Part shown: positions 1,789 through 64,000 of the stretch, one piece after another
How positions within the stretch are numbered: the stretch's first letter is position 1
Layout of the letters: each line of letters opens with the position of its first letter
Virus record (IMG/VR): IMGVR_UViG_3300028370_000004
Location: 1-64,000 of that record
Length of the DNA stretch: 64,000 nucleotides
Reading direction: 5' to 3' (one strand)
From: a virus
Taxonomy: Duplodnaviria > Caudoviricetes
Made by a program: the position numbers and the translations under genes
The notes under the pieces: model-generated
Databases searched by the model: none
What the model was told of the DNA's origin: nothing
The model's input: the letters and a program-made list of their open reading frames with translations, nothing else

Positions 1789-2763
1789 TTATGTGTTTTG
1801 ACGTGATCGAATCATTGCAAGGATATCCTGTGCACCGCCTGCGTTTTCTGCCGGAGCAGGAGCAGGTGCTGATTCTTGTGCTACTTCAGCGTTAGACTTG
1901 GATGGAACGTCTTCGGTCTTAGCTGCTGGAGTAGCTGCTGGAGTAGCTGACGAAGCTTTTGGATCACCTGTGCGCTGTGACATGCCGGCAGGGCGGAAGT
2001 ATTGGCCCCAACGATCCGGATCATATGGTTCTCCATCAACACTTGCTTCGAACATTTCAGTCAATACCTTAACTTCAATTTCCGATGGCTTCTTAGGAAG
2101 GAAGTCACTTAGATCTAGCAATCCATTTTCTGTTACAGCAGCCAATTCTTCGTCAGCAAGGGGGCGGTCTCTACGTGCCCAATTTGAAGTTGAATAGTCT
2201 GCATAGCCGCCCTTGCTGGACTTGGTTAGGCGGAAGTCCACCCCACCAGCATAATCTGTTGGTAGTTCTTCCATGTCTGGATCCATGAGTGCTGCTTTGA
2301 TGATCTTAAAGATCTGGGGACCGATAATAAATCTGCGAACTGGGTTCTCGGGTGTATTATCTTCTTTTAGTGCACTGTCTGTTACCAAGCCTTGGAAAAT
2401 GTACGAACGCTTTTTCCAATACTTTCTGCCCATGTCTTCTAAACTTGGGTCTTTGAACCAAGCGCGTACTTCTGCAAGTATCGGGCAACTTTCGTTATAC
2501 ATTTCCATGCACGGAACTTGTACCTGCACAGGGCGAGAATCAGTTTCTCCTTTGATGCCTGCAAACGGAAGCTTAATCATCAAACGTTCTGTCCAGAAAA
2601 ATGTGTTGTCTGCATTACCGTCTGGTAGGAATCTGATAGTAGAAGTATCACCTTCGTTCATATTCCAAAATGGGTAAATTGCGTTATCGCCCCCGGTTTT
2701 ATTTCCACCTGCGCGAGATTCTTGTTCTTTTAGTTTAGCTCTAATTTCTGCTAGTGATGCCAT
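1789..2763 (-). CDS. Single-stranded DNA-binding protein (T4 gp32-like)
   Basis: IRFLP, CPI, YWKKRSY, GYADYSTS motifs; low-complexity tail; adjacent to uvsX. Confidence 0.9.
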   Translation of the reverse strand: MASLAEIRAKLKEQESRAGGNKTGGDNAIYPFWNMNEGDTSTIRFLPDGNADNTFFWTERLMIKLPFAGIKGETDSRPVQVQVPCMEMYNESCPILAEVRAWFKDPSLEDMGRKYWKKRSYIFQGLVTDSALKEDNTPENPVRRFIIGPQIFKIIKAALMDPDMEELPTDYAGGVDFRLTKSSKGGYADYSTSNWARRDRPLADEELAAVTENGLLDLSDFLPKKPSEIEVKVLTEMFEASVDGEPYDPDRWGQYFRPAGMSQRTGDPKASSATPAATPAAKTEDVPSKSNAEVAQESAPAPAPAENAGGAQDILAMIRSRQNT

Positions 2764-2904
2764 AGTGATGCCTCCTGTTAATGCTATTGCCTATGTGTCT
2801 TTATTTGTTCTTAATCGTGTGCCTGTTTGTAGTGTAGCACAAGTATTATACTACACTATTTTATTTATCCTGTCTATCTTTATTTTAATTAATCCTAAAG
2901 AAAA

Positions 2905-4365
2905 TTACATTCCGGATAGCCGTCTTAGCCTTGCTGTGTCGTCTGCCTGTGTGTGTTGTTGTGGTTGTTCTTGTACCGGTGCGTGTTGTTGCGCATGGGT
3001 AAAGTCGGTGCTTTCCACTTTTTGTATAAACTTTGCGGAAGGTTTTACATACTGGTCGCCGTATTCTTTTTGTACCGCAGTTAATACTGCTGTTTCACCT
3101 TTTGGAAATTTTCTAGTCTCTCTGTCAAAGTAGCTAAGGATGAATTCACCCAATGGAGTTTTTGCAGGTTGTTCCTTGCTGATGTTCGAATCGTTGGTAG
3201 GAACTTCATCATCGCGGTCGGGCGACTCGCTCCATTGACCCATTAACTTGTCAAATGCACTTTCGATTGCAACCTCGGCTTTGGACTTTTTGTCCTTGAC
3301 TGCTTTTTTAAATGGCTCTTTTTTGTTGCCATCTTTGTCTACATCAAGGAAGTCCGGCTTTGCTTCTGCTACAAGGTCATCATAAGATATTTCTCTGGCC
3401 CTTGATGCTTCGCCGACTAACCTATAAATGTAAGGAAAAATGTCTGTTAATTCTTCATTAAATTGCTTAATAGTAAGTTGATCAATCCAGTTCTCCGAAA
3501 CATCGTCTGGCACATCCTCTATCAATGCCGGTGTAAACTTTGCAATTGCTTCCTTGTAATAGGATTCTTTTTGCAAGCCTATAATTTCTTTTTTAACTTC
3601 TGTGACTCTGCTCTTAACAATATCTTTGTATCCGCCTAGTGTTTCAGCCATAACCGAACTACGACCGATATATTGGTTGAACTTGCGCAGTTTGGATGCT
3701 TCTTCTGACAGTCCTGAAATATACTTGCCAAAATCGTCGTATGCGTTACCACCTTCGCTAACATGCATTGCCATTGCGCGGGCGCCACTTAGGTGTTTAA
3801 ATGGATACTTAAATCTCTCACCAGATGGTGATTCAACGTAAATTGCTTTGATTTTTTGGGTTCTGCTATTTACACTCTCTACGTTAATGGGTTGTGAGTG
3901 CTTGATTGCTAACCTAGCATTGCCTATTTTTTGATAACTGGTATTCAGTGTACCATACATTTTTGATTCAGACATCTGATCATCTCCAGAACGATTTTTT
4001 GCTAAAAAGTAATAATCTTTTTTGTTTAATTGTTTTTTGTTTATATCACGCACCGAAAATGCCATTAATCTCTTTTTAGAAAACATTCGTATTTCTCTTA
4101 AAAAGTTATACCAGGCATCTTGTACAGCTTCGTCTTGATCGGCTACCAAGTCCTTGCTAGTGATAACAGAAATTCCAGTATCATTATCAAGACTTACACT
4201 AATTTTACCAAGGTCTTCGCCGTTGCTTATGTACGAAAAGTCGTAATAACGGGCGTCATCTGGTATATTTGTTACGTTGCCTTCTTTGTCGCCGATGGTT
4301 ACGTTGGGGAAACGTCCGCGGATTTTATTGAATAATTCCGCACCAATGCGATCTAAGTTTTTCAT
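2905..4365 (-). CDS. Hypothetical, probably head-associated protein
   Basis: Long ORF; start moved to ATG 4365, 5 nt after TAAATA; carries the EAKPDFLDVDKDG module. Confidence 0.7.
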   Translation of the reverse strand: MKNLDRIGAELFNKIRGRFPNVTIGDKEGNVTNIPDDARYYDFSYISNGEDLGKISVSLDNDTGISVITSKDLVADQDEAVQDAWYNFLREIRMFSKKRLMAFSVRDINKKQLNKKDYYFLAKNRSGDDQMSESKMYGTLNTSYQKIGNARLAIKHSQPINVESVNSRTQKIKAIYVESPSGERFKYPFKHLSGARAMAMHVSEGGNAYDDFGKYISGLSEEASKLRKFNQYIGRSSVMAETLGGYKDIVKSRVTEVKKEIIGLQKESYYKEAIAKFTPALIEDVPDDVSENWIDQLTIKQFNEELTDIFPYIYRLVGEASRAREISYDDLVAEAKPDFLDVDKDGNKKEPFKKAVKDKKSKAEVAIESAFDKLMGQWSESPDRDDEVPTNDSNISKEQPAKTPLGEFILSYFDRETRKFPKGETAVLTAVQKEYGDQYVKPSAKFIQKVESTDFTHAQQHAPVQEQPQQHTQADDTARLRRLSGM

Positions 4366-4376
4366 ACTATTATTTA

Positions 4377-5477
4377 TCAAAAGCTACTGCTGACAAAGAT
4401 AGGCATCGGCTGCTCATAATCTTCGTCGGGTTCAAGATGAATAAAGGTATTATAAATCGAAGGATCCCAATCTTTGATCACAGTAATCATTCGCAGAGCA
4501 AGCAACGTAGCGCTAACCAAATCGTCGCCGTGTCCTTGCTTTGCTTGAAAACTGGTATTCGACTTTACATAATTTTTTAATTCGGATATAAGCGGTCTGC
4601 TTCGCAACAACAGTTGATCGTTTTCAATCATTGTTTTTAATCTTGCGCAGATGGTCATTTTTGCGCCATGTGTGGTGTTAAATCCTTTACGAAACTTTCT
4701 TACATGACCTTTTCTCATGGGTTCACTGATAAACAATCCTGGTATATTTTCTTCGCCATAATCGTTGATTACAATCAGTGCTGCTTCGCCCAATCCATTG
4801 TTCTCGACGCTCCAGTATATGTTGTCGCCACCGCTCTTGGTTTCGTCAGCAATGTATTGGCAGATATCTTTTAATACACGAACCTGGCCAGGGATTCCGG
4901 TTTCGTTGTGACACCATTCCCCAACTTGTTCATACGTAGGAATTTCATATATTTGTAATGCTGCGTTGTTGCCGCCTGTGCCCATAGCAGGATCTAGTGA
5001 CACCACATAACTGTATTTCGAGCTTGGCTTTTTGAACCAACGAGTATGACCCATATTTAATAGAGGCGCTTCGCCTTCCATTGTAGCAAGTTTGATCGAA
5101 TGTATTAGCGTCTCGTCGAACACAAGGAATTCACAGTTCGAGCTGAGTATTTTGTTTGTATAATATCGGTGGCCGCCATTGACTTCTATAAGATCATAAA
5201 CCGGTTCTGAATAACCTAGATCTATTTTGTTGAGTAATTTTATATCGCCTTCGGTTGTAACCACTGTGTTTCCTATTGCAATGTCCTGGGCTTGTTTTGA
5301 AGTTTCCGGGCCTATGTAAAATTTGTGATCGTGGGTGCATTCAACATATGCGCCTTGTTCAAACTCCATTCGGAGCAACGGTTTTATTCCCATCATGCTA
5401 ACACCGGCAAAGTCTTGAAACCCTTCCGGTGTTAGCACCTTGTACCCCTTGATGTTCTCTTTAAAAGTCTTTGTCAT
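4377..5477 (-). CDS. terL: Terminase large subunit fragment 3: IntC-2 (aa 1-114) plus C-terminal RNase H-like nuclease extein
   Basis: Intein block B (ECTHDHKF) and blocks F/G (VYDLIEV..HRYYTNKILSSN|C); then CEFL, SLDPAMG, VENNGLG, GHGDDLV nuclease motifs. Confidence 0.93.
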   Translation of the reverse strand: MTKTFKENIKGYKVLTPEGFQDFAGVSMMGIKPLLRMEFEQGAYVECTHDHKFYIGPETSKQAQDIAIGNTVVTTEGDIKLLNKIDLGYSEPVYDLIEVNGGHRYYTNKILSSNCEFLVFDETLIHSIKLATMEGEAPLLNMGHTRWFKKPSSKYSYVVSLDPAMGTGGNNAALQIYEIPTYEQVGEWCHNETGIPGQVRVLKDICQYIADETKSGGDNIYWSVENNGLGEAALIVINDYGEENIPGLFISEPMRKGHVRKFRKGFNTTHGAKMTICARLKTMIENDQLLLRSRPLISELKNYVKSNTSFQAKQGHGDDLVSATLLALRMITVIKDWDPSIYNTFIHLEPDEDYEQPMPIFVSSSF

Positions 5478-6488
5478 TTAGTGTCCTATACGAATATTTA
5501 TTCTCAAATATCCAAACTTCGTAGTCATACCCTCTGTCTACAACAGCTTGGCGTTTTTTAAGGTTGTTAACCAATCTATTCTTATACTTTTCCTTGCCAT
5601 GGCCGTTCCACCACCATTGACTCTTGACTCTTGACTCTTGACTTCGATAATTTTATTTTCTTTAGGAATGAAGATATCGGGGTAATATTTTAAGTGATGT
5701 CTATTTTCAGCAACGTACTTAAATACCTCGATAGCGTAGTCTGAATAATCGTCGTGTATAATTATGTCATCTTCGCTGTATTTCAGCTGGTTAAATAATA
5801 TATCCAAAGCAAAAGGTTCATGACCGCGTACACCTACAACCTTGCCGCCTGGCATTGTATAGTCTTTTATTGTACAGTTGCCTTTGTTGATCTTGCTAGC
5901 TGTTGTTCCTGACAATAGTACGTTTTCGACACCGTATCTTTCTAAGTTAGTAGCCCGCCTTTGTTGGTTGCTCTTATTCTTTTCTTCAATAGAACGGTTT
6001 ACTCTACTTAAACTAGCCTGCTTGCTGTTGTTGTATTTTTCGTCGCCATATTTTACTAGCTTGGTCTGTCTTGACTTTTCTTTTTGGCTCTCCAACTTTG
6101 ATCCCCACGCAACTCCGTACTTCTTTTTAAACGTAGCTTGCGCTTTGTTAAGTTGTTTTTCTTTTTGTGCATCTGTTCGCAATGCTGCTGCCTTCTTTTT
6201 GTTAGCGGAATCAATTTGTTTTTTGGTTGCAGTCCACTGTGACTTTGTAGTCGACCCACTTACTCCTACGCACTTAGGATCCCCGCAACTGTTGGCATAA
6301 GTTTCTTTGTGTTGATAAAATGAAAGTTTCTCTCCGCATATACACCTAGGACTTGTTCCAGTTGTATACTTTTCGTAGTAATCTCGATACGTTAAGTTAT
6401 GTGTTTTTAAATGTCGCGTGAATTGACCATTGGTTTTGCAGTATGTCTTATTATCTAATCTTGATTCGACGTAAATTGCGACGCTCAC
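5461..6488 (-). pseudogene. Free-standing PD-(D/E)XK-type endonuclease splitting intein 2; frameshifted by a 14-bp repeat expansion
   Basis: KYG repeats and YYPDIFIPKENKIIEVKS; removing two TTGACTC copies restores ...EVKSQWWWNGHGKEKYKNRLVNNLKKRQAVVDRGYDYEVWIFENK...DF* ending at 5461; GGAG RBS before GTG 6488. Confidence 0.75.
5617..5643. repeat. 7-bp tandem repeat (TTGACTC)x3 + TTGACT
   Basis: Read directly from the sequence. Confidence 0.95.
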
Positions 6489-6518
6489 AGTATTCTCCGT
6501 TAAATCGTTCTTGTGCAA

Positions 6519-7256
6519 TTATTTATTAATGGTGCTAAACAGGTTGCCTATTTCTGAGTCAAATATATTACCGTGTATATCCTGGAGGGTGATGATTGTA
6601 GGTGCGCTCACACAACCATACTCGCGCCTGAATCGTTCTTCGCCAATTCGGCCAACCTCACCTTTTTTCCACTCTTCGTCTCTATCTGGGTGATCGTGCC
6701 ACTCTGAGATAAAACTACGGAATCCATTGATGCCTAATTCTTGTTCAACGCCATATTCGTCAAATCTCTTTTCGGCATCTTTCCAAATAGTAGCAAATGT
6801 ATCTTCATCTGAGTTTGGTGTGCTTGTGATAATTGCGCGTCCACCAGTTGCTAGTGTAGGCGAAATTGATGCCCAAAATTCTTCAGCAATGTTTGGTTGC
6901 ACAAATGCGAATTCATCACATTGATGAGAGTTAATATTATTTGCAATTATTACATGATTTTCTGCATTAAATATTTCATAAGTGTCTTCTAAAACTACAG
7001 ATGTTAGGTCTGCCACAGTTTTAATAGTATTGTGCGAATCTAACCTGTCACCTACAATTATATCATTTACTCTTGTTTCTACACCGTTAATAAAAAACCG
7101 GTGTTCTAACGTTGCAGTAACGAAAGTACCGTCGGTAAATGTTATTTTACAAGATTCTTTATTTGCATTTTCATTTAAGAAAATACCTTCAAATTCTTCC
7201 CACCCGTTAGGAGTTAATATTTCATATTCTGTATTAGGTGCGTATATTTGTTTCAT
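6519..7256 (-). CDS. terL: Terminase large subunit fragment 2: IntC-1 (112 aa) + 102-aa middle extein + IntN-2 (31 aa)
   Basis: VTATLEHRF block B; ...IIANNINSHQ|CDEFAF (Walker B); ITSTPN coupling motif; FRREYG|CVSAPTIITL IntN; AAGGA RBS. Confidence 0.93.
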   Translation of the reverse strand: MKQIYAPNTEYEILTPNGWEEFEGIFLNENANKESCKITFTDGTFVTATLEHRFFINGVETRVNDIIVGDRLDSHNTIKTVADLTSVVLEDTYEIFNAENHVIIANNINSHQCDEFAFVQPNIAEEFWASISPTLATGGRAIITSTPNSDEDTFATIWKDAEKRFDEYGVEQELGINGFRSFISEWHDHPDRDEEWKKGEVGRIGEERFRREYGCVSAPTIITLQDIHGNIFDSEIGNLFSTINK

Positions 7257-8130
7257 TGAATTCCTTTACTAACCTTGCTCCACTAACAGGTGCCGCATGC
7301 TGCATGTCGGTATTAATCATCTTAGCAAATACGTCAAACTCGTACAATGATTTATTAATAGTATAACTAGCGTTAGTTAACAACAAATCTATTGTAATAC
7401 TGCACGCACTGTGCTTTGATATGTTTTCTTTCCACGGAAGCATTTGTAAGTTATGTATACTTCCGATAAGCAACGGACTAACACGGTTTTTGTATCCTTG
7501 CATAATAGAAAATATATGGTCTATATGATGTGCACCTTCAACTCCGGCAAGTCCAGTTTTATAACCCGAGGTTATTGCTAGTCTATGCTGTTCAGTGACA
7601 TACGTTACAACTGACTTATACCGATAAAACTCATTACGCTGCGCCGGATCTAATATAAGACCCTTGGCTGCTTTTGTTGCGTTACCTTTAGTAATTGCAA
7701 GAGTTGCTAATTGCGAATAACCGTTACGGCCGAACTCGTCAACATTGCTCATATGCGTTGCTCTAGTTTTTTGGCCTTTTTTACTATATCCACTAATACC
7801 ATCGGCGTCTAGCTTAGATAGCGTTTGTTGGGCAGCAACTTGCGATGTTTCGTAAGCAGTTAGCCCAGTAGCAGAGTCAACTGTACTAAGTCCTTTTTTG
7901 ATGTTTGCTTTTCGTGCATTGCTAACTCCCCGAACTCCTGGGTGCAGTCTATCGTACTCTGCCACGCTCATATGTAACACTCGCTCAATGTACGATGTCT
8001 TGATCATACTAAGACGTTCGTCACTTACAGGACATAATATATAATCTATGCCCGATTGTAATGACGATTCGTACAAATGCGCGTTACGCTTTTGGTTTCG
8101 TTTCTTAAATGCTTGTATTTTTATATCCAT
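7234..8130 (-). CDS. Free-standing HNH-type endonuclease splitting intein 1
   Basis: HHIDHIFS...HNLQMLPWKENISK; ATG 8130 lies 4 nt after TATAAATA; stop overlaps the start of fragment 2. Confidence 0.75.
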   Translation of the reverse strand: MDIKIQAFKKRNQKRNAHLYESSLQSGIDYILCPVSDERLSMIKTSYIERVLHMSVAEYDRLHPGVRGVSNARKANIKKGLSTVDSATGLTAYETSQVAAQQTLSKLDADGISGYSKKGQKTRATHMSNVDEFGRNGYSQLATLAITKGNATKAAKGLILDPAQRNEFYRYKSVVTYVTEQHRLAITSGYKTGLAGVEGAHHIDHIFSIMQGYKNRVSPLLIGSIHNLQMLPWKENISKHSACSITIDLLLTNASYTINKSLYEFDVFAKMINTDMQHAAPVSGARLVKEFNETNIRT

Positions 8131-8156
8131 GCAGTATTTATACAAATGCAAACTTA

Positions 8157-8798
8157 TCACCCGATAATTCTTTTAGGGTTGTGTGTCCTGATATACAAAT
8201 CTCGAAGAGTTATATCTTCTTCAATAAGTGTATGCTTATTACGAACTCGGACAGTAGTTGTATCGCCATCTAAACAGTATAGTAGCGAGATAGCCAAACC
8301 ACGTCCTGTAGTAGGTGTGGTTGTTTGACTGATAATACGCGAGCCGTTTTCAAATTCAATTGAGCCTTTGTTGTAACTGGTTACTCCGGCTCTAATGTGG
8401 TCAGGACACAATTCGTAAACATACCGGATACGCTGCATAATTTCCTGTGCACCTGTGTATTTGTGTGCTGCAATCAAGATAGTCTGATCCGGCTTGAACA
8501 TTGCAAACCACGCAAGATAGATACTTGCACAAGTTGTCTTACCAGTTTGTCTAGGCATCATATTGATGTTGAATCGATAGTTGTGATACGTGTGCATCAA
8601 TCCTAACTGATAATCATACGGATCATACAACAGCTTTCCCTTAAGGGGATGCTGAATATATGCAAACATCTTAGCAAAGTAAAGATAGCCAACATCAGGA
8701 TCCATGCACCCAACTAGTTGTTCAATTTGTTGTTCAGTGAATGTTTCCTGACGGTTGGCTTTCTTAATTAATACGCCGTCTAAGGTAGATGGTGCCAT
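8157..8798 (-). CDS. terL: Terminase large subunit fragment 1: N-terminal ATPase extein (174 aa) + IntN-1 (39 aa)
   Basis: PYDYQ adenine-binding motif, PRQTGKTT Walker A, FENGS, GRG..SLLY|CLDGDTTTVRV intein block A. Confidence 0.95.
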   Translation of the reverse strand: MAPSTLDGVLIKKANRQETFTEQQIEQLVGCMDPDVGYLYFAKMFAYIQHPLKGKLLYDPYDYQLGLMHTYHNYRFNINMMPRQTGKTTCASIYLAWFAMFKPDQTILIAAHKYTGAQEIMQRIRYVYELCPDHIRAGVTSYNKGSIEFENGSRIISQTTTPTTGRGLAISLLYCLDGDTTTVRVRNKHTLIEEDITLRDLYIRTHNPKRIIG

Positions 8799-8801
8799 GG
8801 G

Positions 8802-9791
8802 TTACTTTCCCTTTGCAGCCTTATCTGTTTTCTTAGCAAACGGATCGGCTTTTTTATCTTTAATTGCTTTTTTCATCGGCTCTTTTTTGTCGCCATCTTT
8901 GTCCATATCAAGGAAGTCTGGCTTTGCTTCTGAAAGAGCTTTGTAAAGGCGAGCTTTGATATCTTCAACAGCCATTTTCCTCGACTCCATAGCATCGCGG
9001 TCGTCTTGCCGTTGGTGCATTTTGTGATCGCCGTAATCATCTGCGTTGCGCTGCATCTCGTCTCTGATCATTTCTTGATAATTACGTGTTTGCTTGTCAT
9101 CTAGATCAATTTCGTTGTCGTTTTTGTCAAAGGCAGATATTTCAATTTCGTCGTATGATTCATCATCGTAAACCCAGCTAATTGTTAAGTCAAGATCGTC
9201 GTCAAAGAACTCGCCGGACTTCTCAGGTGTATACTTTTCGGTAACTGCCATTGGATTGTCGCCATCTTCTGCATCTGCATATGCACCTTTTTCACGATTA
9301 AGACCTCCAGCAAGGTCTTTGATCATGTAGTCAGTGTCACGATAATCTTCTTCGGGTTCATTGGCATACTCGTCGGTTATCTTGTCGCCGATTGCGCCGC
9401 CTGCTGCGCCCCCAACGGCGCCGCCAATTGGCCCTGCTAGTGCCGCGCCGCCTGCTGCACCTAGTGCGCTACCTGCTACAGTACCAAGAAGGCCTTCATC
9501 GGAATCTCTATCAAACGGATTGCTGTCTACTCCAGGAATTGCCGGATTGTCCACAGTTGATAAGTTTCTTGTAGTACCGTTTGATTCAATGCTTGCTAAC
9601 TTTGATATCATAGCGCTAATTGCACCTACATCCCCGGTGATGCTAATTTGGCCACTGGCCGATTCTGCTGGGGCACCCATATCGGCATCTGGCGGGCATT
9701 CGTATATTGATCTAGATTCGCTTATATTTTTTCTAGTTGAGAGCTTGTTAAAGCCTGCTAGAATTCTTCTCATATCTTCGTTGTTGTCCAT
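8802..9791 (-). CDS. Acidic hypothetical protein, possibly an internal head protein, with glycine zipper
   Basis: GxxxG-rich segment; C-terminal EAKPDFLDMDKDG module. Confidence 0.7.
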   Translation of the reverse strand: MDNNEDMRRILAGFNKLSTRKNISESRSIYECPPDADMGAPAESASGQISITGDVGAISAMISKLASIESNGTTRNLSTVDNPAIPGVDSNPFDRDSDEGLLGTVAGSALGAAGGAALAGPIGGAVGGAAGGAIGDKITDEYANEPEEDYRDTDYMIKDLAGGLNREKGAYADAEDGDNPMAVTEKYTPEKSGEFFDDDLDLTISWVYDDESYDEIEISAFDKNDNEIDLDDKQTRNYQEMIRDEMQRNADDYGDHKMHQRQDDRDAMESRKMAVEDIKARLYKALSEAKPDFLDMDKDGDKKEPMKKAIKDKKADPFAKKTDKAAKGK

Positions 9792-61799: not shown

Positions 61800-61803
61800 T
61801 TAG

Positions 61804-63804
61804 TTACACAACACTGCTAATTTCAAGATCGTTACTAAAGGTTGTAAAGCCGTTTTCTTTAATCACCTTTAATAAGTGGTTAACTCTACCAATTAGCTCA
61901 TCTTTGTGAGATATTAAAAATATATTCTTATTTCTTTCTCTTCCCATCTTCTTTAGGATAGCAAGAGAATTTTCAACTCCGGCTGTGTCCATTCCGCTGT
62001 CAATAAGTTCGTCTATGAACAGTAAATTAACACCTTGGTACAACGATTCCCATACATCGCGGAATGCAAAGCTCAATCCTAGGATCAATCTGTTGCGTTC
62101 TCCTCTTGACAAGTTGTCAAAGTCCAAATCTTGGCCTAGTTGTGTGATTTCTACAGATAAATCATTTTGAAATTGTACCTGATGTGGTAATCCTAGCTTG
62201 TCAAGGTATGAAGTTAGCCTGCTGTTGAGGTAAGCAAGGTTTTGATCAATGATCTTCTTGCGAATAAAACTGTCCTTGTTGGTTAACAGCTTGAGAAGGA
62301 ACTCTTGGTGCTCTTTTAGCAATGTAAGTGTGTTTACTTCATCCCAACTCACATCTTGCAATGCAGTTTCGGTTAAATCGTCAATTTGCTGCTGGTAAGG
62401 GTCTTCGTCATCGAGTTTGGTTTGCAGAGCATTGGTTAGTGAGTCGACATTATTTCGATGCTCATAGGCTTCTTTGGCATTTTCATAATAAGTCTTTGGT
62501 CTGCCGTTGATATCGCCAATGTTTTCAAGTGCTGTTAGTACTGTACCGAGTTTACGAGCAACTTCGCTCTGGTATGTAGTAGCATCCTCTAGTTCTTTGT
62601 TCCGTTTAGCTGTAATCTCTGCTTTTTTGTCTGCATGAAGTTCTTGTCCGCATGTGTAACACGTTGCATTGTCTAACCCGGATATATCATTAACAAGTGT
62701 ACTCACACCTTTGTCAGCCCGTAACATAGCAGAGTCCAGTGTTGACTTTTCCTTGTTGAGTGCTGTTATTTCGTTGTTGTGCTTGGTCCAGTTGGCAAGC
62801 AAATCGTGAGCTTCTAGCTCTTTGTCAATGTCTAGACGCTCGAGTTCTGTAATTGCTGACTGAAACTTTACAATATCCTGCTTTGTCTTGGTGTTCCATG
62901 CATTCCGTCGAGTCTTTAGTGTGTTAATACTCTGGCCAATCTTCTCATTGCTTGTTTGAATGGAACTGATCTTAAGAGTTTCTTCGGTAATAGACTCTTT
63001 TGTTCGCTTTACCTTCTCTTTGAGTACTTCGGCCTTCTCGGAAAGCAAGGTAATACCTAATAGCTGTTCGATGATCTCTCTTTGATCATTGGTTCTCATA
63101 CTAAGGAACGGTTCGGAGTAGGTGTTTAGAGCTACAATATGCTTGAACATGTTGTGGGTCATTCCTAGTAATGTACCAATTGCCTTTTGTGTTTCTCTGC
63201 TGTCGCCTTGACTTTCGTCGGTAGTAGCGTCAACTTGTTCAATATCGTTTACATAAAATTTGAGTACATTAGGAGATCTTCCACGCTCGATGCGATAAGT
63301 TAGTCCTCCCTTTTCAAAGTTTAGTGTAACCAACATACCTTTGCGGTTGGTCTTGTTGATCAAGTTGTTCCGTTTGATGTTAGTAAGCGCTTGTCCGTAA
63401 AGCGCATACGACAATGCGTTGATGATAGTGGTATTATGCGAAAGTATGTTGTTTGAATAAAATCTGTGATCATTGCTATCTACTGTTACGTCAAACATAT
63501 TCTCGCAAAGGTCGGTTTTGATAAGTTTTACAACTAGATCAGGACCGTGCTTTGTTATTATTTTTGTTTTGTTTTTGATAATATCTTTAACAAAAATTTC
63601 ATCGAAGCTTTGGTCGAACACAATATGAGTATCAGCACATTCTAGAATTAATCCAGAATCAGTCTCTAGTTTCCACACTGTATATGGAACAGTTTTGTGA
63701 ATAGTAGTTACAGGATGCCACCCGCTATCTGTTTCAATTTCCAAGTTGGATAGATCCAGGCTATCAATAAACTTTCTTTCTATTGTGTTAGAAATTGTAT
63801 GCAT
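61804..63804 (-). CDS. gp46/SbcC/Rad50-like recombination ATPase, C-terminal fragment starting with a 124-aa IntC
   Basis: LECADTHIV block B; MFDVTV..HRFYSNNILSHN|TTIINAL; zinc hook CYTC; LSRGE; LFIDE. Confidence 0.92.
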   Translation of the reverse strand: MHTISNTIERKFIDSLDLSNLEIETDSGWHPVTTIHKTVPYTVWKLETDSGLILECADTHIVFDQSFDEIFVKDIIKNKTKIITKHGPDLVVKLIKTDLCENMFDVTVDSNDHRFYSNNILSHNTTIINALSYALYGQALTNIKRNNLINKTNRKGMLVTLNFEKGGLTYRIERGRSPNVLKFYVNDIEQVDATTDESQGDSRETQKAIGTLLGMTHNMFKHIVALNTYSEPFLSMRTNDQREIIEQLLGITLLSEKAEVLKEKVKRTKESITEETLKISSIQTSNEKIGQSINTLKTRRNAWNTKTKQDIVKFQSAITELERLDIDKELEAHDLLANWTKHNNEITALNKEKSTLDSAMLRADKGVSTLVNDISGLDNATCYTCGQELHADKKAEITAKRNKELEDATTYQSEVARKLGTVLTALENIGDINGRPKTYYENAKEAYEHRNNVDSLTNALQTKLDDEDPYQQQIDDLTETALQDVSWDEVNTLTLLKEHQEFLLKLLTNKDSFIRKKIIDQNLAYLNSRLTSYLDKLGLPHQVQFQNDLSVEITQLGQDLDFDNLSRGERNRLILGLSFAFRDVWESLYQGVNLLFIDELIDSGMDTAGVENSLAILKKMGRERNKNIFLISHKDELIGRVNHLLKVIKENGFTTFSNDLEISSVV

Positions 63805-64000
63805 TTCTCTAATACTTCCTCTTTATTTCTTTTAAAATCACTTTCCCAGACAACTAAAACTTCGTATCCTTGATCTTCGGCAAATTTAATTTTTTGTTCG
63901 TCTAACTTCCATTTTTCAGAAGCTATCAGTTTAGTTCTAGGATTTATATAATCTGCAGAATATTTTTTAGGATTACAGTGCCAAAAGTCTCCGTTGTATT
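63780..64000 (-). CDS. 3' end of a Vsr/DUF559-like endonuclease splitting the gp46 intein (partial)
   Basis: Manual translation YNGDFWHCNPKKY...DEQKIKFAEDQGYEVLVVWESDFKRNKEEVLEKCIQFLTQ*; stop overlaps the IntC start. Confidence 0.8.
   Translation of the reverse strand, partial: YNGDFWHCNPKKYSADYINPRTKLIASEKWKLDEQKIKFAEDQGYEVLVVWESDFKRNKEEVLEKCIQFLTQ

Follow-up and report, generated by a model that had tools for sequence, protein, structure and literature searches.

Genes fractured by a split intein, the two parts being separated by a free-standing endonuclease gene, were described by Dassa et al. 2009 (PMC2677866) and include a GOS terminase whose C-terminal intein fragment (IntC) is 122 amino acids (aa) long. 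In those loci a gene part fused to an N-terminal intein fragment (IntN) is followed by a homing endonuclease gene and then by the IntC fused to the remaining part, all on one strand. The same order is found in the gene for the large terminase subunit (TerL) carried by the window analysed here, a stretch of 64,000 nucleotides (nt) that forms the first 64 kilobases (kb) of a 151-kb IMG/VR virus record (IMGVR_UViG_3300028370_000004). However, whereas the known loci are fractured once and yield two pieces, the window has a single gene fractured twice, with two inteins and two unrelated endonuclease families, and its middle chain bears an IntC at the head and an IntN at the tail. A first-pass annotation of the sequence had proposed that this terminase is assembled from three chains. 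It correctly took single fractured genes with a split intein and an endonuclease to be known and knew of no characterised natural example with two; likewise, we found no description of natural tandem trans-splicing or of a double split intein in the open-access full-text literature.

The inteins AceL-TerL, GOS-TerL and Cat resemble those of the window in combining a short IntN with an IntC of about 105-120 aa. The 6DSL chain continues into a Cys-Glu C-extein, and the second site of the window likewise reads CEFL, although the last residues of intein 2 in the window are Ser-Asn and those of Cat Ser-His-(Asn). Intein 1 has only a distant similarity to the Cat group (IntC1 against CatC, PDB 6DSL_B, gives a weak E of 0.0094), lies in Walker B and ends in Gln. 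The AceL-TerL, GOS-TerL and Cat inteins have been subjects of engineering and, to our knowledge, have been studied as single pairs, never as two pairs within one natural protein.

Two further systems invite comparison. Inteins of mycobacteriophage TerL, including one at the Walker B site TerL1-e, act in cis and have been shown to splice in a reporter and in vitro (Kelley et al. 2016, PMC5050341). Like intein 1 they sit in or beside the terminase Walker B motif, but they are contiguous and reside in terminase_1 proteins of actinophages, whereas the window encodes a gp17-type terminase_6 protein split by an endonuclease gene. Tandem trans-splicing with two orthogonal split inteins has been engineered for three-segment labelling (PMC12707363) and for orthogonal libraries (PMC7090010). 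Such systems resemble the window in using three chains, two non-cross-reacting pairs and a middle chain built as IntC-extein-IntN; they are man-made, whereas the layout in the window is natural, conserved and located in an essential gene. What is new is the natural combination of two different split inteins, unrelated endonuclease genes and an essential enzyme from three chains, widely conserved.

The locus comprises five consecutive open reading frames (ORFs) on the minus strand, running from 8798 to 4377 in the order O1-H1-O2-H2-O3 (Table 1). O1, O2 and O3 are free of internal stops and frameshifts, and split-intein halves flank a free-standing endonuclease gene on one strand twice, once as O1-H1-O2 and again as O2-H2-O3. 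All ORFs and all intein and extein limits given in the first-pass annotation proved exact to the base. Our analysis confirms that the double-intein layout of this terminase is real and far beyond chance.

Table 1. Features of the terminase locus in the window, and states of the two intein sites in the window and related loci (L numbers)
Feature	Positions or loci	Strand	Description
O1	8157-8798	minus	213 aa; N-extein 1-174, IntN1 175-213
TerL N-extein, residues 1-174	8277-8798	minus	start of ATPase domain, Walker A PRQTGKTT; ends ISLLY, first half of Walker B
IntN1	8160-8276	minus	39 aa, CLDGDTTTV; short N-fragment of split intein 1; stop 8157-8159
H1	7234-8160	minus	308 aa; endonuclease gene
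O2	6519-7256	minus	245 aa; IntC1 1-112, extein 113-214, IntN2 215-245
IntC1	6921-7256	minus	112 aa; long C-fragment; block B TLEH, block F DTYEIFNAENHVIIAN, ends NINSHQ
TerL middle extein	6615-6920	minus	102 aa; CDEFAF (Walker B Asp-Glu) to RREYG, end of ATPase domain
IntN2	6522-6614	minus	31 aa, CVSAPTIITLQD (starts CVSAPT); N-fragment of split intein 2; stop 6519-6521
H2	5538-6518	minus	326 aa; second endonuclease gene
O3	4377-5477	minus	366 aa; IntC2 1-114, then extein from CEFLV
IntC2	5136-5477	minus	114 aa; C-fragment; block B THDH, block F PVYDLIEVNGGHRYYTN, ends KILSSN
TerL C-extein	4380-5135	minus	252 aa, from CEFLV; RNaseH-like nuclease domain; stop 4377-4379
Both sites empty	L037-L085
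Split intein 1 with H1	L008-L017 and others
Cis intein 1	L007, L026, L027
Split intein 2 only	L035, L036, L077
Both inteins split	window, L006, L011/L012, L030, L033, L034
Split intein 1, cis intein 2	L018

Each of the three exteins is recognisable as part of a terminase. The N-extein matches Pfam Terminase_6N (5.8e-09) and phrog_5989 (3.1e-45) and is 57% identical to TerL of the Pseudomonas phage PA5oct, the match ending exactly where the extein of O2 begins. Identity to the same protein is 61% for the middle extein and 45% for the C-extein, which also matches Pfam Terminase_6C (1.5e-05). The PHROG terminase profile phrog_36964 was matched colinearly by the three ORFs (432-522 by O1, 516-631 by O2 and 626-862 by O3), and on PA5oct DNA tblastn placed the pieces at 128891-129385, 129386-129688 and 129692-130435, abutting within one codon. 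Splicing in silico, by removal of residues 175-213 of O1, 1-112 and 215-245 of O2 and 1-114 of O3, produced a TerL of 528 aa. This product is 52% identical to the uninterrupted 531-aa PA5oct protein and combines the features of a gp17-type TerL, namely Walker A, Walker B with the catalytic Glu, an RNaseH-like nuclease and colinearity with intact homologues. The seamless 528-aa product predicted by the first-pass annotation, with junctions SLLY/CDEFAF and RREYG/CEFL, was borne out by this alignment to an uninterrupted gp17 homologue, which has no gap at either junction, and by the empty-site relatives described below.

We dissected 80 related IMG/VR loci using nine segments of the window as queries. 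TerL is uninterrupted in 47 of these loci, where the exteins are 82-88% identical to those of the window, and every one of the 47 reads ISLLYCDEFAF at site 1 and RREYGCEFL(V/I) at site 2. The sequences of the empty sites are exactly the predicted ligation products, with both +1 cysteines included, and the junctions are therefore seamless. Site 1 falls inside Walker B, with the strand LLY before it and Asp-Glu after the +1 Cys, while site 2 coincides with the end of the ATPase domain. An alternative junction for intein 1, ANNIN/SHQCDEF, was rejected because empty-site alleles read LLYCDEFAF without extra residues.

Sequence profile and fold support the assignment of both elements to the inteins of the HINT family. 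Both possess the class 1 set of Cys1 (kept throughout the related loci), block B Thr-x-x-His, block F, a terminal Gln or Asn and Cys+1. Their partition into fragments of 39 and 112 aa (intein 1) and of 31 and 114 aa (intein 2), with block B located in the IntC, is that of an atypical split. A profile made from the two inteins and their relatives (alignment A1) matched 22 solved inteins, the best being CatC (1.9e-14) and gp41-1 (1.9e-12).

For intein 1, Cys1 and the block A motif of IntN1 are kept in about 30 related loci, and the SHQ/C sequence at the end of IntC1 is retained in 28 of the 28 loci aligned, cis forms included. In the relative L007, intein 1 occurs as a contiguous mini-intein within a single TerL ORF of 698 aa, its IntN and IntC portions being 91% and 89% identical to those of the window. 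When this cis intein was modelled by AlphaFold with alignment A1 (60 rows), the predicted local distance difference test score (pLDDT) was 90.2 and the predicted template modelling score (pTM) 0.84, and the Foldseek matches listed for the model are intein or intein-like (BIL) structures with template modelling (TM) scores up to 0.78. IntN1 maps to strands 8-13 and 19-23 and to helix 24-38 of this HINT model, and the split falls in the loop after that helix. Indeed, the sole disordered stretch of the model, residues 39-50, is where intein 1 of the window is cut after its 39-aa IntN.

The HINT assignment of intein 2 is based on sequence: IntC2 matches CatC, a consensus atypically split TerL intein (PDB 6DSL_B), with an E of 3.3e-10, and it also matches gp41-1 and VidaL. 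IntC2 is conserved across 9 loci; homologues of IntN2 are present in L011, L033, L035, L036 and others, and in the cis form of L018 IntN2 is fused to IntC2. Judged by these similarities, intein 2 is a member of the AceL/GOS/Cat TerL group, in keeping with the first-pass description of short IntN fragments and of an AceL-TerL-type intein at the CEFL site. We kept intein 1 out of this group because of its weak match to CatC and its different site. Elsewhere in the window, at about 61800-64000 on the minus strand, a 672-aa open frame starts with an IntC2-like stretch (63421-63681, E 9e-05).

The middle piece, which opens with an IntC and closes with an IntN, is diagnostic of the layout. A search of 5.8 billion proteins with this piece gave 856 matches, and among the best 120 cluster representatives, which we took further, 93 were 238-256 aa long. 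All of these 93 clusters (93/93) retain the block B His and Cys+1 together with the Walker B Asp-Glu and the Cys1 of IntN2, and their IntN2 tails measure 28-41 aa. The middle-piece layout thus recurs in at least 93 metagenomic protein clusters and on contigs of up to 356 kb, and all three pieces are present on several IMG/VR contigs. The three-piece layout is not rare; it is common in uncultured phages. Ratios of non-synonymous to synonymous change (dN/dS) were 0.05-0.32 for the intein parts (IntN1 0.13-0.32; IntC2 0.11-0.16), 0.12-0.14 for the endonucleases (H1 0.14 against L008) and 0.04-0.11 for the exteins. These values indicate that the intein parts and the exteins are under purifying selection, which is strong for the exteins.

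A terminal Gln, as in intein 1, is a functional though slower variant in the PolII inteins of Pyrococcus (PMC8175363). Across the 93 middle-piece clusters, intein 1 ends in Gln (SHQ) in 51 and in Asn (TKN) in 42, and is always followed by Cys-Asp-Glu. Since SHQ/C is kept in the cis forms of L007 and L026, the terminal Gln is a family trait and not a sign of decay. These cis forms must splice, because excision is the sole route to an active enzyme in a single-ORF TerL.

We propose that the three chains are, very probably, ligated into one TerL by two trans-splicing reactions. A gp17-type TerL gene would have been invaded by mini-inteins at LLY/CDE in Walker B and at REYG/CEF at the end of the ATPase domain. 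Each intein would then have received a free-standing homing endonuclease gene in the loop that follows its first helix, an insertion that divided it into a short IntN of 39 or 31 aa and a long IntC of 112 or 114 aa. Translation of the locus would now give three polypeptides and two endonucleases. The two fragments of each intein (IntN1 and IntC1, IntN2 and IntC2) would associate to complete a HINT fold, and two class-1 trans-splicing reactions would join the three exteins into the 528-aa TerL. The chemistry would involve a thioester at Cys1, trans-thioesterification to Cys+1, and cyclisation of the terminal Gln in intein 1 or Asn in intein 2. A complete Walker B and a covalently attached nuclease would exist only in the ligated product.

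A cultured phage offers a parallel. Salicola phage SCTP-2 (MF360958; L001, L086 and L087 among our loci) is an isolate with a complete genome of 440 kb, and its only TerL is in three pieces. Just one of them, gp224, is annotated as a terminase; it begins with an IntC1 homologue ending VSQ/CDEFAFV and is preceded by gp225, a homologue of H1. An ORF near 429.5 kb ends with ARQLGK followed by a 43-aa IntN (CVDYET), and another, near 256.7 kb, has at its start an IntC with the terminus SHN/T and at its end LLY followed by an IntN1-like CLDGETT. Neither another nuclease domain nor a contiguous Terminase_6N match was found in the SCTP-2 genome. That this phage is viable with only a three-piece TerL makes tandem trans-splicing in vivo very likely as a general mechanism. 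SCTP-2 has in common with the window the Walker B junction, homologous IntN and IntC fragments and the H1-like gene gp225. In contrast to the window, its second split lies at Walker A (GK/C .. SHN/T) rather than at the CEF site, its three genes are spread across more than 200 kb, and the middle extein contains an additional cis intein. No paper discussing the three-piece TerL of SCTP-2 was found in the open-access literature.

Several points weigh against tandem trans-splicing in the window. Splicing itself, the orthogonality of the pairs and the order of the reactions are what we infer from the anatomy, homology, fold, seamless junctions, conservation, selection and mobility pattern observed, and the sole basis for orthogonality is that IntC1 and IntC2 are about 26% identical. 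IntN1 and IntN2 searched alone against PDB sequences gave no match, and the Pfam and NCBIfam intein models returned only sub-threshold scores; the intein reading of the first-pass annotation is thus upheld by the profile matches to PDB entries and, for intein 1, by the fold of a cis relative, and not by these models. That fold comes from the cis model of L007 rather than from the two fragments of the window, and AlphaFold run on the single L007 sequence reached a pLDDT of only 36. Intein 1 ends in Gln, a residue with which PolII inteins react more slowly than with Asn, and intein 2 has Ser in the penultimate position (Ser-Asn) instead of the usual His. Finally, the source record is about 43% complete (CheckV), so that a second TerL elsewhere is possible, and a frameshift in H2, described below, shows part of the locus to be decaying.

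The non-canonical C-termini (His-Gln for intein 1, Ser-Asn for intein 2), together with the sub-threshold scores of the Pfam and NCBIfam models, also speak for a different use of the same fragments: the three chains might assemble unligated, with catalytically dead intein fragments serving as high-affinity docking modules. We regard this as very unlikely. The catalytic positions are conserved over large distances, those counted being kept in 93 of 93 clusters, and a HINT domain left within Walker B would part the beta-strand from its Asp-Glu. In addition, cis forms with the SHQ/C end occur in single-ORF TerL proteins (L007, L026), where excision is the only way to activity.

The incompleteness of the record and the H2 frameshift bear, moreover, on whether the locus works at all. 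It might be non-functional or redundant, either as a decaying terminase in a defective genome or because the unsampled 57% of the genome contains an intact TerL. This is highly improbable in view of the strong purifying selection on the exteins (dN/dS 0.04-0.11), the absence of stops and frameshifts from the three TerL ORFs and the fact that the layout is found again in 93 or more protein clusters and on contigs as long as 356 kb. Furthermore, no second copy of the TerL ATPase or nuclease was found within the 151-kb record, and the complete genome of SCTP-2 has only a pieced TerL.

Ligation of the chains at the protein level must also be set against joining at the level of RNA, in which the endonuclease genes would lie inside group I or II introns and the mRNA would be spliced before translation. 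In gut jumbo (Jug) phages, introns are known to divide terL into two or three fragments (PMC12880540), and phage introns often carry endonuclease genes. However, an Rfam scan of positions 4000-9200 on both strands (E<=1) found no family and no RNA intron, which agrees with the preference of the first-pass annotation for protein-level over RNA-level joining. What flanks the endonuclease genes is coding sequence for intein fragments, under purifying selection and with conserved catalytic residues, a pattern that would be inexplicable for intron RNA, and relatives devoid of the endonuclease gene keep separate or fused intein ORFs (L033, L034, L007). Joining by RNA splicing is therefore barely credible.

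The related loci also reveal how mobile the two elements are. Empty sites, cis inteins and split inteins with or without an endonuclease gene are all found among relatives with 80-88% identical exteins, and empty, cis and split states are seen at both sites (Table 1). L033 and L034 represent split forms lacking one or both endonuclease genes. When L007:701-900 was compared with L008:3963-5023, the intein DNA was 100% identical on both sides, and L008 carried an H1 cassette of about 930 nt in place of an unrelated in-frame linker of 69 nt in L007. This difference implies that a mini-intein becomes split, or reverts, when one of its loops acquires or loses a free-standing endonuclease gene. Between the window and L008, nucleotide identity was 85-98% in the intein-1 cassette as against 65-83% in the flanking exteins, and the proportion of synonymous differences (pS) was 0.18-0.30 as against 0.64-0.75. 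This discrepancy indicates that the intein-1 cassette was recently transferred laterally.

Two further observations concern particular relatives. In L015-L017:3988-4119 and L032:3987-4127, the IntN1 ORF continues into a short copy of the C-extein start (DEFAFV or DEFGFV) before reaching a stop; this copy may have been left behind when recombination introduced the endonuclease cassette. In L006, the closest three-piece relative, positions 2484-4106 hold a third intein in the first piece, a cis element of about 310 aa with a LAGLIDADG-like region. It sits in Walker A, from PRQTGK/ALAL to THN/TT, and, starting with Ala, may not be of class 1.

The two endonuclease genes differ in type. H1 overlaps the stop of O1 and the start of O2, gene callers placing its beginning at residue 11, and its presence in relatives does not follow that of the intein. 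It probably encodes a free-standing endonuclease of HNH/treble-clef type, as suggested by matches to phrog_5104 (3.1e-18) and to phrog_1035, endonuclease VII (8.9e-04), by an HHIDH..N..N motif spotted by eye only, and by weak Atlas leads to treble-clef/HNH clusters, with scores below 0.9. Searches of H1 in Pfam (the motif region included), NCBIfam and PDB gave no match. H2 matches Pfam DUF7487 (PF24308) with 101.5 bits against a cut-off of 27 (E 8.5e-29), as well as phrog_3339, homing endonuclease (2.1e-07), and has a PD..EVK motif. At about 5617-5643, H2 contains AAGAGTC three times, compared with once in the homologues of L035 and L036, resulting in a frameshift just after the EVK motif. The intact homologues in L035 and L036 are 346-347 aa long, and the former C-terminal 50 aa of H2 can still be read in the +1 frame up to the start of O3. 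H2 looks like a spent endonuclease that is beginning to decay.

A length of 151 kb at about 43% completeness points to the record being part of a jumbo phage genome, and the closest cultured relatives of the TerL are those of jumbo phages, namely the PA5oct group, Atu_ph07 and Rak2-like phages. When the locus was compared by megablast with 50,697 phage records, nothing matched. A promoter and terminator scan showed promoter-like sites within the locus to be no more frequent than expected by chance and found no minus-strand terminator there; the scan is compatible with a single transcription unit, for which it is weak evidence.

Tandem trans-splicing might have been retained as a post-translational gate on terminase activity that times or throttles DNA packaging, the ATPase becoming active only after three chains have met and two orthogonal inteins have fired, one of them through slow Gln cyclisation. 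We consider such a role unlikely. If it were true, intein 1 would be the first natural split intein known to splice via a C-terminal Gln at moderate temperature.

The locus would provide ready-made pairs of atypically split inteins, whose IntN fragments of 31-39 aa are short enough for peptide synthesis and for three-segment labelling. For genome annotation, a TerL in pieces explains the apparently missing or truncated TerL in many jumbo-phage contigs. The relatives display the life cycle of the element, from the empty site through the cis mini-intein and the endonuclease invasion with its split to endonuclease decay and the split intein without endonuclease. If the proposed splicing is true, the window encodes a natural protein made from three chains via two trans-splicing reactions, a design so far known from engineering. 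Mispairing of the inteins would cyclise or skip the middle piece; in an essential protein with a conserved layout, selection must already have solved the problem of orthogonality.

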